45,435 bases of DNA from a bacterium. Its GTDB lineage: Bacteria; Zhuqueibacterota; Zhuqueibacteria; Oceanimicrobiales; Oceanimicrobiaceae. Positions 1,015 to 5,873 of the stretch are shown piece by piece (positions within the stretch are counted from its first letter, which is position 1; each line of letters starts with the position of its first letter). Both the position numbers and the translations under genes were made by a program. Under the pieces are notes generated by a model. That model was not told where the DNA came from, ran no database searches, and saw only the letters and a program-made list of their open reading frames with translations. Location of the stretch: the NCBI GenBank assembly GCA_046758765.1, contig JBHIAW010000003.1, forward strand, positions 1 to 45,435. Direction: 5' to 3'.

Positions 1015-1671
1015 TTACTTTATGTTAATGTTTTTATAACCATGAATCGTTAAATTCTTCCGACCATTAGCAATATAATTAAAACGAAATAGCGAGGCAA
1101 TTACAAACTTTTTCCTTTTTTGCCACCATTTTTCACAAAAAATAAGATTTTTACGTATTGTTCGTTCAGCATCACCAGTTGTACATCCATCAGTAATCAT
1201 TTTTATAATACCAGCGTTAGCACATCGACCAAAACTTTTTTCTAAAAATGGAATAAAAACAAAACGATCTTGAAAGCCAATATAAGAAAAAGCTTTTTTC
1301 TCCGCTGAAATCGAATCTTTGCCGAGGATATGAGCTGAGAAACATGCAATCATATAACAAATCTTATTTTTAAGCAATTGATTGTTTTGTAGGTCAATTA
1401 AAGCTTTTCCATCACTTCCAAACAAAGAAGTGCCGGAATCACCACCATGACCATAGAATACCACAACACCAACCTGACTTACGATTTTATGAAGAACCCC
1501 TTCAACTTTTTTCCTCATAGCTTCCTTATGTTTAAGGTCAAAAACAATATAAACATCTGCATCCAAGAACTTTTTTAGTACCTTTGAGGCCCAAATGTAT
1601 GTAAATTTCGTTGCATCATTCTTTGTTGTTTTAAGTCTGGGTCTAATTAATACGACTTTCTTTTTTTCCAT
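1015..1671 (-). CDS. Standalone caspase/gingipain-fold (clan CD, peptidase C25-like) cysteine protease-like protein
   Basis: Hydrophobic strand + GHG (VVVFYGHGG, H75) and hydrophobic strand + AC (ICYMIACFSA, C110) form the His-Cys dyad pattern of clan CD peptidases. There is no signal peptide. The start overlaps the upstream stop (TAATG). Confidence 0.6.
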   Translation of the reverse strand: MEKKKVVLIRPRLKTTKNDATKFTYIWASKVLKKFLDADVYIVFDLKHKEAMRKKVEGVLHKIVSQVGVVVFYGHGGDSGTSLFGSDGKALIDLQNNQLLKNKICYMIACFSAHILGKDSISAEKKAFSYIGFQDRFVFIPFLEKSFGRCANAGIIKMITDGCTTGDAERTIRKNLIFCEKWWQKRKKFVIASLFRFNYIANGRKNLTIHGYKNINIK

Positions 1672-2315
1672 TATTCCCCCCTAAAAAACTCTGCCTCCAT
1701 TCTTTTGAGGTCTTCTTCATCAATTTTTTCGCTAGCTAGTGAATCAATTATGGTCTCCAAGATAGCTTTCCTTTGGGCTAATCCAATCGGAGTCTTCTTC
1801 TTAATTTGGTTATAAAGTTCTTCAAGTGAATATTTTTCACCACTTGTAGTTATAAGAAAAATCTTTTCGGGATGAGGGCTACGCTTTACAACGTCCTCAA
1901 TGGCTTCAAGGATTTCATCTTCTTTTAATTCAAGTAGGTCTTTTATAGTTAAAATAAGTTTCTCTTCATCCCAGGGTTTTCCAAAGTAAGCATCCGCATT
2001 ACCTTCTTTAAACGCGAAGCCGATGTCATCGTAACCAGCTTTGCCTGTAAGAAGGATCTTTTTAATCCATGGATATTTCTCATTTATATCTTTAAATAGT
2101 CTTGACCCTTGGTCATGACCAGGCATAATTTCATCTGCTATAATTACTATTGGAACGTTTCTGTTCTTAAGATTTTCCAGAAACGATAAAGCTTCCTCTG
2201 GATTTTCAAAGCACTCAACCTCCACCGATTTACCCAAAGCTTCTTCTAGTTTAGATCTTAGCGCAACCAAAACTTGTTGATTATCATCAATACAAATTAC
2301 TATACCTTCGCTCAT
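1671..2315 (-). CDS. Response regulator: receiver domain plus an uncharacterised ~85-aa C-terminal domain
   Basis: Receiver motifs ICIDD, IIADEIMPG (phosphoacceptor D61), LLTG and YFGKPW are intact. The C-terminus has no recognisable HTH. ATGA overlap with the kinase stop and RBS AGGAGGTGA. Confidence 0.9.
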   Translation of the reverse strand: MSEGIVICIDDNQQVLVALRSKLEEALGKSVEVECFENPEEALSFLENLKNRNVPIVIIADEIMPGHDQGSRLFKDINEKYPWIKKILLTGKAGYDDIGFAFKEGNADAYFGKPWDEEKLILTIKDLLELKEDEILEAIEDVVKRSPHPEKIFLITTSGEKYSLEELYNQIKKKTPIGLAQRKAILETIIDSLASEKIDEEDLKRMEAEFFRGE

Positions 2316-4684
2316 TTTGCATCACCTCCTATGGGCAATATAACTGAAAATGTTGTTCGCTTTTTGTTAGAAGTAAAAGTTAGTTTTCCCCCACATCTTT
2401 CAACTACTAATTTGCTAAAGTACAATCCATAACCTGCCCATGGCCTATTACTTCCCTTTGTAGTAAAAAATATGTCAAAAATTTTATCCCTAATCTCTCT
2501 AGGAATTTCAGGACCGTCATCTCCTATCTTTACAATGATTCTATCGTTCTGTCGTTGGGTTTCAATATAAATATTTCCTTCATTCTTAATAGCTTCAATG
2601 GCGTTTTCAATTAGGTTATGCCATACCATGTTTAGAGTACCAATTTGTGCCCTAATCTTAGGAATCCCAGAAGAATAAGCTTTCTTTATCTTTATTCTTC
2701 CGTTAATCATATTCCGAAATATATTCAAAACGCGTTCCAAACCATCATGAACATCAACTTCCTCAAATCGAGATACATCAATATTTGAATATTCTCTTAA
2801 GGAGTTTGCGCTTACACTTAATTGATTAATAGAAGTTTCACAATTCTTCAAATTACTTCCGATTTCCCACACTGTTTCCAGAAAATTAAGAAGTTTTTCC
2901 TGATCATAGTTCTGTAACAAATATACAATTTTTCTCAACTTCTCTGTTATACCAACTTTAGCCAAAATTCGGCTCACTGAAATAGCATTTGAGATTTTGT
3001 GCTTAGATAAGAATTTTCCCAAACGTTTTCGATCTTTTCGCTCCTCCTTGAAACTATGCATTTCGCTGGAACTTTTCTCAAAAACATCAGCTAATAACGA
3101 CAAGTAAAACTGTTCGTCTTCCTCCGCCAACCTGAGAGTCTTAAAACTCATGTATAGCTCAATTAGATTTCTAAGAAAGTTTTTAGCATTTGCCGTTGAC
3201 TGTTTTATCGAGCCAATGGGGGAATTAAAACTGTGAAGTACACCGCCAATGATCCTCTGAGTACTGGTAACTCTTTCGATTTGTATTAATTGATTCTCCA
3301 CTGCTAGTTTTCTGCTTACATCTTCCACTAGAATCAGAAGGGTCTCTACTTCATTGGCTGTTTTGAAAAGAGGCTCGCATCTGAGACTAAGAAAGGATTT
3401 TTTACCAAATAAAGAAGTAAACTCCCTTCTTCCCCATTCGAAAGGGTTTCCTGTTTTTAATGCTTCTTTAATAAGCTCTTTAAGATCGTTAGGAACCGTA
3501 CCCAACTCAAAAATATTTTGACCAGTCGCATTGCCACCCATAATATTAATATGTGCTTGATTGACTTCGGTAATAGTTCCATCTCTATTCACACAGGCTA
3601 TGCCTATCGGCGCATGCTTAATGATTCTTGTACGAAGCTCAGATTCTCTCTTCGCTTCCTCAAGAAGTTTCATGTTTTCAATCTTAATAGCGATGAAGTT
3701 TGCCAAAGTTGTCAAAATACTTTCATCGGCCGCAGTGAACCCTCTCCCCGCCTTAACACGAGATAAACGAATGACACCTGTGACTTCACTTCTAAACTTC
3801 AAAGGCACGCCCAAATAAGGCTCTGGGTCTCCTTCTTCACCCAATATTTCAGACCACTTTGGAAATTTTCGCTGTAACCCAGGAGCTTTTTGGGCTACTT
3901 CTTCTTCATCTTTAGTGTCATAAATCCTTAGCGGTTTTCTAGATTTGGCTATCCAACCTGTCAAGCCTTCTCCAATGGAATAAACCATTTCATGCTTTTT
4001 TCCTACATTTAAGATTCCAGTTGTTGCCTCCAACATAAGTTTATTATCTTTTTTTAGAAATATTGAACAACCATCTGCTTCGAAAGCCTCGTTAATCTGC
4101 TCAACTAATTCGTTTAAGCTTAATGCCTTTATTAGAGACTGCTTGAGACGATTAAGAATCATTTCTTTCTTAAATCGAAAAGAATTTCTAATTGAATAAG
4201 CCGCGAAATCACAGACTAATTTCATAAGTCGTTCATGAGTTTTACTAAATTTTTTCACTTCTGAAGAAGTAATAGCTATAGCACCCATTGTTTTTCCATA
4301 CCTTTTTATAGGGAACACCAGACAAGATACAATCAAGTCATCAAAGAATGTCCTAAACAAAAAAGGCTCCATTTTTCTTGCATCAGATACATTATAACTT
4401 TTGCCTGTTTGGATTGTAAGACAGAGCCGTGTTACTTGTTCTATAGGATCTGGCCTGTTTTTTTTTCTTTTCTTGATATGGAAGTTTTGATCTAAGTAGT
4501 ATGCAATCAAATTCTTGTCTTTTTCGTCAACAATTAAACAAAGTCCTTTTTCACCAGCAACTAATTTCACACTTTCATCAACTAACAATTTCAGCAACCT
4601 ATCTAGTTGATGTACTTTGTTAAGCTTTCGCTGAATATTGATCAGCTTTTCATATTCTTCTATATTTTTAATTTGTTTAATCAT
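2312..4684 (-). CDS. Soluble GAF-GAF-PAS sensor histidine kinase
   Basis: Two GAF domains (LVFPIKRYGKTMGAIAI; GEGLTGWIA...YLGVPLK..VTGVIRL), a PAS domain (APIGIACVNRDGTITEVN), H-box VLHSFNSP, N-box NLIENAIEA, G1 DDGPEIP, F-box IFDIFFTTK and G2 AGYGL. The start is moved from 4753 to ATG 4684, which has RBS GAGGTG overlapping the anmK stop. No transmembrane segments. Confidence 0.9.
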   Translation of the reverse strand: MIKQIKNIEEYEKLINIQRKLNKVHQLDRLLKLLVDESVKLVAGEKGLCLIVDEKDKNLIAYYLDQNFHIKKRKKNRPDPIEQVTRLCLTIQTGKSYNVSDARKMEPFLFRTFFDDLIVSCLVFPIKRYGKTMGAIAITSSEVKKFSKTHERLMKLVCDFAAYSIRNSFRFKKEMILNRLKQSLIKALSLNELVEQINEAFEADGCSIFLKKDNKLMLEATTGILNVGKKHEMVYSIGEGLTGWIAKSRKPLRIYDTKDEEEVAQKAPGLQRKFPKWSEILGEEGDPEPYLGVPLKFRSEVTGVIRLSRVKAGRGFTAADESILTTLANFIAIKIENMKLLEEAKRESELRTRIIKHAPIGIACVNRDGTITEVNQAHINIMGGNATGQNIFELGTVPNDLKELIKEALKTGNPFEWGRREFTSLFGKKSFLSLRCEPLFKTANEVETLLILVEDVSRKLAVENQLIQIERVTSTQRIIGGVLHSFNSPIGSIKQSTANAKNFLRNLIELYMSFKTLRLAEEDEQFYLSLLADVFEKSSSEMHSFKEERKDRKRLGKFLSKHKISNAISVSRILAKVGITEKLRKIVYLLQNYDQEKLLNFLETVWEIGSNLKNCETSINQLSVSANSLREYSNIDVSRFEEVDVHDGLERVLNIFRNMINGRIKIKKAYSSGIPKIRAQIGTLNMVWHNLIENAIEAIKNEGNIYIETQRQNDRIIVKIGDDGPEIPREIRDKIFDIFFTTKGSNRPWAGYGLYFSKLVVERCGGKLTFTSNKKRTTFSVILPIGGDAK

Positions 4685-4694
4685 AGCAATCACC

Positions 4695-5873
4695 TCATAA
4701 ACAAATTTTACCCAAAATGGTTGGCTTAGCTGCGCCAGTTGCACCGGGAACATTATTAAGATTTCCCGAAATAGTTTCGTTGGCTAAAACAGCAAAACAG
4801 ACCGCCTCTTTAGCCTCCGAGGGAATGCCAAACTCATCAATAGTTTTCACTGAAATATCTTGGAATTTGTTTCGTAATGAGTTCATGATGTGCTGGTTTT
4901 CGGTGCCGCCGCCGCTAACAATCAATTCATCAATCATGGTTTTTGGGGCAGCAAATTCTTGACAACTTTGCCAAATGGCCATGACTGTGAATTCTGCGGC
5001 TGTGGCGATTAAATCAACGGGTTTCAATCTTAATCTGCTTCCCTTTGCTAAAAATTTGTCACAAAAAGCGCTGCCAAATTCTTCTCGACCCGTCGATTTC
5101 GGGGGTGGCTTCTTAAAGAATGTCTGTTCTAAGCCAAAGGCCAGAAGCTCTGGTGAGACCCGTCCGGATTCCGCCGTATGACCCTCGTCGTCAAAAGGTT
5201 TATTAAAAAGTTTCTGCATGAGGGCATCGATAACCATATTTCCGGGACCCGTGTCAAAGGCCACCACATCCTCTAAGCTACCATTTTTCTTCAAGACCGT
5301 AAGATTAGCAATGCCTCCAATATTTAGCAAGGCTCGATTTTTCTCGGAAGAACGAAACATTATGAAATCAAAATAGGGGATAAGCGGGGCACCCTGCCCA
5401 CCCTCTGCCATATCCGCTGGACGAAAATCAGCCACCGTCAAAATTCCCGTACGCTTGGCAATAACCGACGGTTCCCCCAACTGCAAAGTCGACCTTATTT
5501 TGTATTCAAAAAGAGTGGTTTCCTCAGGAAGATGCTGAACCGTCTGACCGTGTGAACCGATGAAATCCACTTGTTCTGGTTTGATAGGTGTGGCCTGCAG
5601 AAGCGCCATAACCGCATCGGCAAAGATTTCGCCTAATAGAACATTGAACCTACATATCTCATCAATCTTACCCTGCATCGAAATTTCTACAATCTTTTCT
5701 CTTAGGCCTACCGGATAAGGATAAGTAATAAAATGAATCAGATCAAGAGTGGTTTCCAACCCGTGATTTCTTATTTTCACTAAAGCGGCATCAACCCCAT
5801 CCATCGAGGTGCCTGACATAAGGCCAACGGCTACCTTTTGGCTTTTTCGTTGGATTGTTTGGAGATATTGCAT
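4695..5873 (-). CDS. anmK: Anhydro-N-acetylmuramic acid kinase
   Basis: Signature motifs GLMSGTSMDGVD, GSHGQT, DFR..D.A.GGQGAPL, NIGGIAN, FDTGPGN, PPKSTGRE and KEA..FA.LA. Confidence 0.96.
   Translation of the reverse strand: MQYLQTIQRKSQKVAVGLMSGTSMDGVDAALVKIRNHGLETTLDLIHFITYPYPVGLREKIVEISMQGKIDEICRFNVLLGEIFADAVMALLQATPIKPEQVDFIGSHGQTVQHLPEETTLFEYKIRSTLQLGEPSVIAKRTGILTVADFRPADMAEGGQGAPLIPYFDFIMFRSSEKNRALLNIGGIANLTVLKKNGSLEDVVAFDTGPGNMVIDALMQKLFNKPFDDEGHTAESGRVSPELLAFGLEQTFFKKPPPKSTGREEFGSAFCDKFLAKGSRLRLKPVDLIATAAEFTVMAIWQSCQEFAAPKTMIDELIVSGGGTENQHIMNSLRNKFQDISVKTIDEFGIPSEAKEAVCFAVLANETISGNLNNVPGATGAAKPTILGKICL

Follow-up and report, generated by a model that had tools for sequence, protein, structure and literature searches.

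The window analysed here is the whole 45,435-nucleotide stretch at positions 1 to 45,435 of contig JBHIAW010000003.1 (GenBank assembly GCA_046758765.1), from a bacterium of the family Oceanimicrobiaceae in the phylum Zhuqueibacterota. It carries three closely packed genes on the minus strand, in the order sensor histidine kinase (2312..4753), response regulator (1671..2315) and small caspase-like protein (1015..1671), and it is this cluster, and above all the unnamed output domain of its regulator, that concerns us. As its longest open reading frame (ORF), the kinase is 813 amino acids (aa) long, with two GAF-type stretches (Pfam GAF, expectation value (E) 1.4e-20), a PAS domain (PAS_4, E 6.5e-5) and a C-terminal HATPase_c domain (E 1.8e-16). 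The kinase stop and the regulator start overlap in the letters ATGA, and the regulator stop and the start of the caspase-like gene overlap in TAATG. The 214-aa regulator is made up of a receiver (REC) domain (residues 6-124, 1944..2300), a domain that we call X (residues 129-198, 1722..1931; helix, beta-hairpin, helix and long helix, as delimited from homologues and an AlphaFold model), and a C-terminal acidic tail (residues 199-214, 1674..1721) recognized from family alignments. The 218-aa caspase-like protein has an isoelectric point (pI) of 9.9, and its predicted structure and His/Cys motifs mark it as a small caspase-fold (clan-CD-like) protein.

Over residues 6-124 the receiver matches PF00072 with 47.5 bits, where the cut-off is 30.2 (E 2.3e-12). 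An acidic pair at D10/D11 (in IDDN), D61 (IIADE), T90 (LLTG) and K113 (FGKPW) can be located in it, and judging from motif context we take these to be the canonical receiver positions, with D61 as the probable phospho-acceptor. The C-terminal part that follows, residues 129-214 (86 aa, window 1674-1931), contains no helix-turn-helix (HTH), GGDEF or HD-GYP domain and has no match better than E 0.01 in either Pfam or NCBIfam, the best scores being E 0.13 in Pfam and E 0.019 in NCBIfam (14 bits against a cut-off of 283). Nor does it correspond to any of the known response-regulator outputs that we considered, which included the OmpR, NarL and LytTR types of HTH, GGDEF, EAL, HD-GYP, CheB and PP2C, among others. 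Across seven members of the X family, Pfam matched nothing above noise except the receiver itself. Neither X nor the proteases matched anything in PADLOC or PHROGs; in PADLOC the window regulator (P0001) has no match below E 0.005, and neither the window protease (P0002) nor the proteins P0008 and P0009, introduced below, have any. PDB sequences gave no match to X, either alone or as a profile (best profile E 0.56), and fold searches with a model of X returned nothing significant (best E 0.46 in PDB and 0.6 in BFVD). An initial annotation of this DNA, made from its letters alone, had described a receiver followed by a C-terminal domain lacking HTH, GGDEF and HD-GYP signatures, and Pfam and NCBIfam confirm that observation; no known DNA-binding or enzymatic output emerged from those databases or from the PDB fold and profile searches. 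The two peptides that it quoted are both present exactly, while its end coordinate of 1930 is one base out of frame, the frame-true stretch being 1674-1931.

The regulator tail is a real but rare unnamed domain. An exhaustive phmmer search of 1.84 billion representatives returned two proteins at E <= 0.001, the query itself and P0003 (E 8.5e-5), a 193-aa protein from a 25,188-bp contig in which a helical N-terminus is followed by two tandem copies of X and there is no receiver. A profile built from these two, run in a word-index search of 5.8e9 proteins, recovered six proteins at E <= 1 among 1618 candidates, both inputs included. Two of them, P0004 and P0005, are receiver-X fusions of 200 and 204 aa (E 5e-7 and 1e-6), and another two, P0006 and P0007, are 112-aa proteins with a helical N-terminus and a single X. 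This N-terminus has a weak resemblance to DivIVA (E 0.06 for P0006, best E 0.039 among members). The conserved core of the family reads G..(Y/W/L)(S/T)...L..EI(K/R)..T..G, then (I/L)..(T/I)ID(L/S)L, and the window copy is its most divergent member, with IIDSLAS where others have TIDLLFR or TIDLLMR. An AlphaFold model of X from a 6-row alignment (predicted local distance difference test (pLDDT) score 78) has helices at 4-17, 36-44 and 48-67, the last of 20 residues, and strands at 25-27 and 33-35; the acidic tail is modelled as a helix at 72-84 with lower confidence. That 16-residue tail is missing from P0004, P0005 and P0009, whose ends fall just past X. X itself is acidic in every homologue (pI 4.7-5.9; 5.1 for the window core), which argues against DNA binding.

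Attempts to extend the family were mostly negative. A single-sequence word-index search with the X piece returned the query only (1 of 157 candidates), and X was found in none of 166 other genomes of the phylum. Among 401 genomes there were three weak matches (E 0.0015-0.005), with about two expected by chance at the threshold used; we rejected all three, which lie in open frames of 316, 169 and 574 aa unlike X proteins, and by eye the first two look like hemC and rlmH. Pattern scans of species genomes twice gave 145 pattern matches with none confirmed, and since these patterns would miss the regulator of the L004 locus described below, relatives may have been missed. Viral scans confirmed 0 of 193 matches for the X alignment A2, 0 of 129 for A4 and 0 of 30 for P0003, and tblastn of P0009 against plasmids found no match. 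By structure alone, residues 129-199 have look-alikes in the ESM Atlas in Bacteroidota clusters of 205 and 208 aa and archaeal clusters of 83 and 70 aa, which we treat as leads. The initial annotation had pointed to a pattern, G.(Y/F)(S/T).EEL...V...(T/D).IG, of small proteins encoded beside caspase-like proteins in bacteria of the candidate phyla radiation (CPR) and DPANN archaea. In the alignments this pattern fits the core of the X family; the CPR/DPANN occurrence is not borne out, the two structure-only archaeal look-alikes being all that bears on it.

The protein encoded next to the regulator is a candidate clan-CD-like peptidase, as predicted from its fold and a His/Cys pair. Its Atlas model (predicted template modelling score 0.89) has a caspase/CHAT/gingipain-like fold. 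The nearest Atlas clusters are unnamed phage and Bacteroidota proteins of 213-253 aa, with template modelling (TM) scores by query of 0.83-0.87, and among named clusters CHAT reaches 0.67-0.71, Peptidase_C14 0.73 and Peptidase_C25 0.74. The candidate catalytic histidine is His75 (in YGHGG, codon at 1447..1449) and the candidate catalytic cysteine Cys110 (in IACFS, codon at 1342..1344), both on the minus strand. H75-G76 and C110 are each preceded by a hydrophobic strand in the style of clan CD. Both are invariant between this protein and P0008, where they align with the motifs SHGSESG and VACLTG, and the same columns hold His, Gly and Cys in 60 of 61 phage relatives, in their GHG and WCN motifs. 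That the window protein, its L004 counterpart and 60 of the 61 members of the phage family have all kept these residues speaks for selection on catalysis. Of the named clan CD families (C14, CHAT, C25, C11 and C13), the one to appear in profile comparison was Peptidase_C25, at E 0.17 and with 11.5 bits where the cut-off is 23, and neither P0008 nor the phage protein P0011 has a Pfam match. A word-index search returned the window protein only (1 of 166 candidates), 60 other genomes gave no real match (one other, at E 0.0045, has an internal TGA), tblastn against phages found none, and a viral scan with the protease alignment A5 confirmed 0 of 188. The start that the initial annotation gave for this protein, VLIRP....DAT..T..W, is present as a motif, but its first spacer is seven residues long and not four.

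The arrangement recurs. When metagenomes of the Joint Genome Institute (JGI) were scanned by pattern, a single locus, L004, was confirmed out of at least 589 matches. It lies on a contig unrelated to that of the window, and its gene order is that of the window: a kinase (P0010, 703 aa), a regulator consisting of receiver and X (P0009, 198 aa) and a small protein, P0008 (208 aa). P0009 begins directly after the kinase, and P0008 overlaps P0009 by 4 nt. By BLASTP the two regulators align colinearly from residue 6 to residue 197 (24% identity, E 5e-6), and P0008 shares 19-20% identity with the window protease (pairwise E 1e-3), the His-Gly and Cys of both falling in matching columns. The kinases have only the catalytic ATPase domain in common, the L004 enzyme carrying an N-terminal HATPase_c_3 head and the window enzyme GAF/PAS inputs. 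With the same regulator and protease under different kinase inputs, the constant core is the regulator and the caspase-like protein, and the sensors are exchangeable. Thus in both receiver-fused loci that can be read (2 of 2), the overlapping next gene encodes a small His/Cys caspase-like protein. Of the five X loci with readable DNA, three have a small caspase-like gene no more than one gene away from X. In two of these it overlaps the X gene, and those two are exactly the receiver-fused forms.

The surroundings of L004 have features of their own. Its kinase (L004:2508-4619) has two GHKL ATPase domains, an N-terminal head that matches PADLOC REase_II (type II restriction-enzyme) models at E 9e-15 and the C-terminal HATPase_c domain. 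Converging on the caspase-like gene, and overlapping its 3' end, is a gene for a C5 cytosine methylase (L004:5768-6904; PF00145, E 1e-70). The flanks look like housekeeping DNA, with ORFs labelled by eye as an ABC-F ATPase, glyA, nrdR and ribD. This hints that L004 is a DNA-modification-linked defence cassette set between housekeeping-looking ORFs.

X also occurs alone in phages, as proteins of 86-110 aa of the P0006 type on three related IMG/VR contigs. On one of these, L006, a 183-aa caspase-like gene, P0011 (4137-4688), lies one gene upstream of the standalone X on the same strand. P0011 aligns with the A5 profile with its motifs in register (hhalign E 3e-4, probability 39%), and it has no PHROG match. 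It belongs to a phage family for which we confirmed 77 loci of 86 pattern matches in IMG/VR (L008-L084), solitary caspase-like proteins of about 180 aa, many on contigs of more than 100 kb. The motifs conserved in this family are an N-terminal L.IH..D.(S/T)T.F, then GHG and WCN.D; each of the residues His, Gly and Cys is present in 60 of the 61 distinct sequences. Compared as a family with the window protease, it gives an hhalign probability of 27% (E 7e-4); with P0008 the probability is 2%, no detectable relation. In three X-bearing loci (L005:4007-4681, L006:1890-2639 and L086:1725-2387) a gene of about 220 codons beside X looks by eye like a class II aminoacyl-tRNA-synthetase or HisZ-type protein, and in L006 and L086 it is followed by a gene labelled by eye as GIY-YIG homing-endonuclease-like.

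From these observations we propose that the three overlapping genes form one signalling module whose output would be a protein-protein contact and not transcription. The kinase would phosphorylate the receiver at D61. X, an acidic helix/hairpin domain of about 65 residues, would bind the caspase-fold protein made from the translationally coupled next gene, and phosphorylation would alter how X is presented and so switch that protein. Our confidence is about even in this reading, a two-component system that acts through direct, phosphorylation-toggled contact between X and a co-translated caspase-fold protein. What the data show is a domain family, a recurring gene order, a predicted caspase fold with its His/Cys pair, and an X domain without DNA-binding features; the direct binding and the sign of the control we infer. 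As to the sign, we favour a version in which the unphosphorylated regulator would keep the protease in a 1:1 inactive complex, and phosphorylation-driven dimerization of the receiver would bring two X-bound proteases together and activate them, as adaptors do with initiator caspases. This dimer-activation version fits the other architectures because they too would present two copies of X: P0003 through its tandem X-X, and the proteins with a helical N-terminus and one X if that N-terminus, with its weak DivIVA match, pairs as a coiled coil.

When the window protease (A5) and X (A2) were co-folded, the median ipSAE was 0.43 (runs of 0.55, 0.38 and 0.43) against 0.01 for the best control, all controls scoring 0.00-0.01. 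The partner pLDDT is at least 70, contacts agree to at least 91% between runs, and the protease chain has a pLDDT of 91. In calibration, 58 of 80 solved complexes and 2 of 110 mismatched pairs attained the mark, but only 7 of the 80 did so with a score of 0.60 or under, as did both of the mismatches. A co-fold with the protease, which the initial annotation had suggested as a check, therefore passes, at a tool grade of weak support.

Several points weigh against a direct contact of this kind. The co-fold pass falls in the weak band, and the bacterial sample amounts to two loci, the window and L004, whose caspase-like proteins are only 19-20% identical, P0008 being called caspase-like from aligned motifs. 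An AlphaFold model of the window protease alone, from a 2-row alignment, was poor (pLDDT 47) and went unused, so the fold call rests on the Atlas model and the co-folded chain. Two of the three related standalone-X contigs have no P0011-like gene anywhere in the record, these records being an estimated 30% and 60% complete. When the X profile was run against every ORF of 40 aa or more lying no farther than 3 kb from the 77 phage caspase-like loci, X turned up in one, L006 itself, the next best match having E 0.034. Those loci have no neighbour family in more than 18 of 77, save two clusters (in 25 and 24 loci), the example ORFs of which run antisense inside the caspase-like gene. Charge complementarity is not conserved either: the window protease has a pI of 9.9, that of L004 a pI of 5.8 and the phage protein one of 5.5.

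These points also settle how far the rest of the initial annotation can be followed, which as a whole is partly supported. It had read the tail as a normally standalone module captured by a receiver. X is indeed a separate mobile domain, found standalone at 112 aa, in phages at 86-110 aa and as a tandem pair, but standalone X does not generally sit beside such proteases. Its proposal that homologues of X would neighbour such proteases holds for the receiver-fused forms (2 of 2 beside a caspase-like gene) and fails in phages (1 of 3 contigs, 1 of 77 loci). The fit that it saw between an acidic regulator tail and a basic protease is true of the window and not of L004 or the phage protein.

The alternative that survives best is that X is a general oligomerization or partner-binding output acting on another target, so that the caspase-fold protein would share the operon and have no direct contact with X; it might, for example, process the same target or answer to the kinase pathway in some other way. 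Much of the evidence just given is what such a reading would predict: two of three phage contigs with a standalone X and no caspase-like gene, 76 of 77 phage caspase-like loci with no X nearby, and a co-fold score in the weak band. It accounts less well for the overlap of regulator and protease genes in both bacterial loci despite their different kinases, and for a co-fold score of 0.43 where controls reach 0.00-0.01. We consider it possible, though on the unlikely side.

We think it less likely still that the downstream protein retains the caspase fold and the His and Cys and yet is a non-peptidase, such as a binding scaffold, in which case the module would not be proteolytic. The lack of a Pfam peptidase family by sequence (C25 at E 0.17) and of close homologues would suit a scaffold, but the keeping of His-Gly and Cys across the window, L004 and 60 of 61 phage family members would not. 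A special case of partnership would make X a substrate of the protease or a detachable pro-segment, cut between receiver and X or in the acidic tail, with the freed piece serving as the signal. Here the co-occurrence and co-fold evidence is the same as for the switch that we favour, and the extra 16-residue acidic tail of the window regulator, which other members lack, is a further point for it; however, no cleavage motif can be named for the caspase-fold protease and the tail is not conserved, and we regard this version as improbable. Very improbable is a small nucleic-acid-binding output (a degenerate HTH or an HU-like domain) in an ordinary transcriptional two-component system for the adjacent gene, since for all the helix-turn-long-helix of the model (helices 36-44 and 48-67) and a weak Pfam HU-HIG match in two of seven family members (best E 0.13), those matches are all far below threshold, no HU or IHF chain is listed in the PDB-sequence profile search, no DNA-binding fold was matched (best PDB E 0.46), X is acidic in every member, and the regulator overlaps its supposed target gene with no intergenic operator. 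An HU-like identity for X in particular is rejected in view of the sub-threshold HU-HIG scores, the PDB profile, the fold search and the acidic pI.

The switch that we favour would resemble several known systems. RssB and CpdR are response regulators that act as adaptors for the ClpXP protease. The window regulator would share with them a receiver, a phosphorylation-gated contact with a proteolytic machine and the absence of DNA binding. The differences from RssB are substantial, as RssB has a PP2C-like domain and hands its substrate to an AAA+ protease encoded elsewhere, whereas the window output is an unrelated domain of about 65 residues and its presumed partner is a small clan-CD-like protein from the overlapping next gene. 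That partner in turn resembles the clan CD peptidases C14, CHAT and C25 in predicted fold (TM by query 0.67-0.74) and in having His-Gly and Cys after hydrophobic strands, but is much smaller, lacks accessory domains and reaches no Pfam family above threshold. The P0011 phage family resembles the window protein in that L.IH..D.(S/T)T.F, GHG and WCN lie in aligned register; the relation is remote, the genes are solitary, and 76 of 77 loci are without X. Initiator-caspase adaptors of the CARD/DED type, which work by induced proximity, offer a parallel in mechanism, in that a small helical adaptor would join caspase-fold monomers, X being present in tandem, with a helical N-terminus or on a dimerizing receiver. 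X has no sequence or fold relation to death-fold domains.

A likeness can also be drawn to the caspase and CHAT effectors of biological conflict, where a caspase-fold protein is placed under an adjacent signalling component, and L004 stands beside a cytosine methylase and has a GHKL restriction-type kinase head. Those effectors differ in using NTPase, TIR or nucleotide signals; type IV Thoeris (PMC13243611), for instance, is said to be a TIR-caspase system. In the parts of Kaur et al. 2020 (PMC7159879) available to us, which treat effector-associated modules, receivers are only sporadic among effectors and no histidine kinase is reported. We found no description in the literature of a receiver fused to X or of a kinase-regulator-small-caspase operon, although the supplementary tables of PMC7159879 may list receiver-caspase contexts. 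The module works like the RssB/CpdR adaptor regulators and the partner-controlled caspase/CHAT effectors and is a member of neither group, because it has no PP2C-like domain, no PADLOC match for regulator or protease, and no named clan CD family by sequence.

Some features of the window concern the integrity and expression of these genes. Contigs from public runs cross the receiver-X boundary without differences (run X1 covers 900-1962 and run X2 1672-2086), and the X1 contig also spans the regulator-protease junction without differences; these runs may be the window's own source and are not independent. In runs X4 and X5 positions 900-2209 are covered by no contig, which does not count as evidence. 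The public-run contigs break off at 2271-2272, a short way into the regulator gene from its 5' end, where a 55-letter contig of run X2 (window 2271-2301) has 25 unlike letters past 2271, and at 2457-2489, at the 3' end of the kinase gene, there are loose ends and a 1-base shift. Judging from the contigs only, there may be strain variation near the kinase/regulator junction. At its other end (window 4684-4753), the longest kinase ORF has 59 bases in common with the 3' end of an upstream anmK-like ORF (4695..5873). An internal Met at kinase residue 24 would begin just past the stop of the anmK-like ORF, and the true kinase may start there, with a probable length of about 790 aa. A scan for promoters and terminators did not depart from chance (19 hits where 16.9 are expected, and 3 where 4.3 are).

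The presence of standalone X in large phages, together with the methylase and the restriction-type ATPase head at L004, suggests that the module may belong to phage-host conflict. A more far-reaching version of the proposal, which we regard as doubtful, would have X serve bacteria and phages as a domain dedicated to caspase recruitment: once phosphorylated by the two-component system, receiver-X would dimerize and so activate a minimal caspase-fold protease by induced proximity, and at least in L004 this would be an anti-phage suicide or immunity switch. Prokaryotes would then have, in this module, a counterpart of caspase activation by adaptors that is gated by phosphorylation, and large phages would use their standalone X proteins either as decoys for the protease of the host or to control a caspase-like protein of their own.

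To our knowledge, the outputs of nearly all response regulators characterized so far bind DNA, are enzymes or serve chemotaxis. The regulator described here probably carries a new kind of output, one that binds a clan-CD-like protein. If true, a receiver with a small adaptor domain of its own for the direct control of a caspase-fold protease would constitute a new output class, and the three genes of the window, whose products are each of a size suited to structural and biochemical study, would be among the simplest known circuits leading from a sensor to a caspase-like enzyme.

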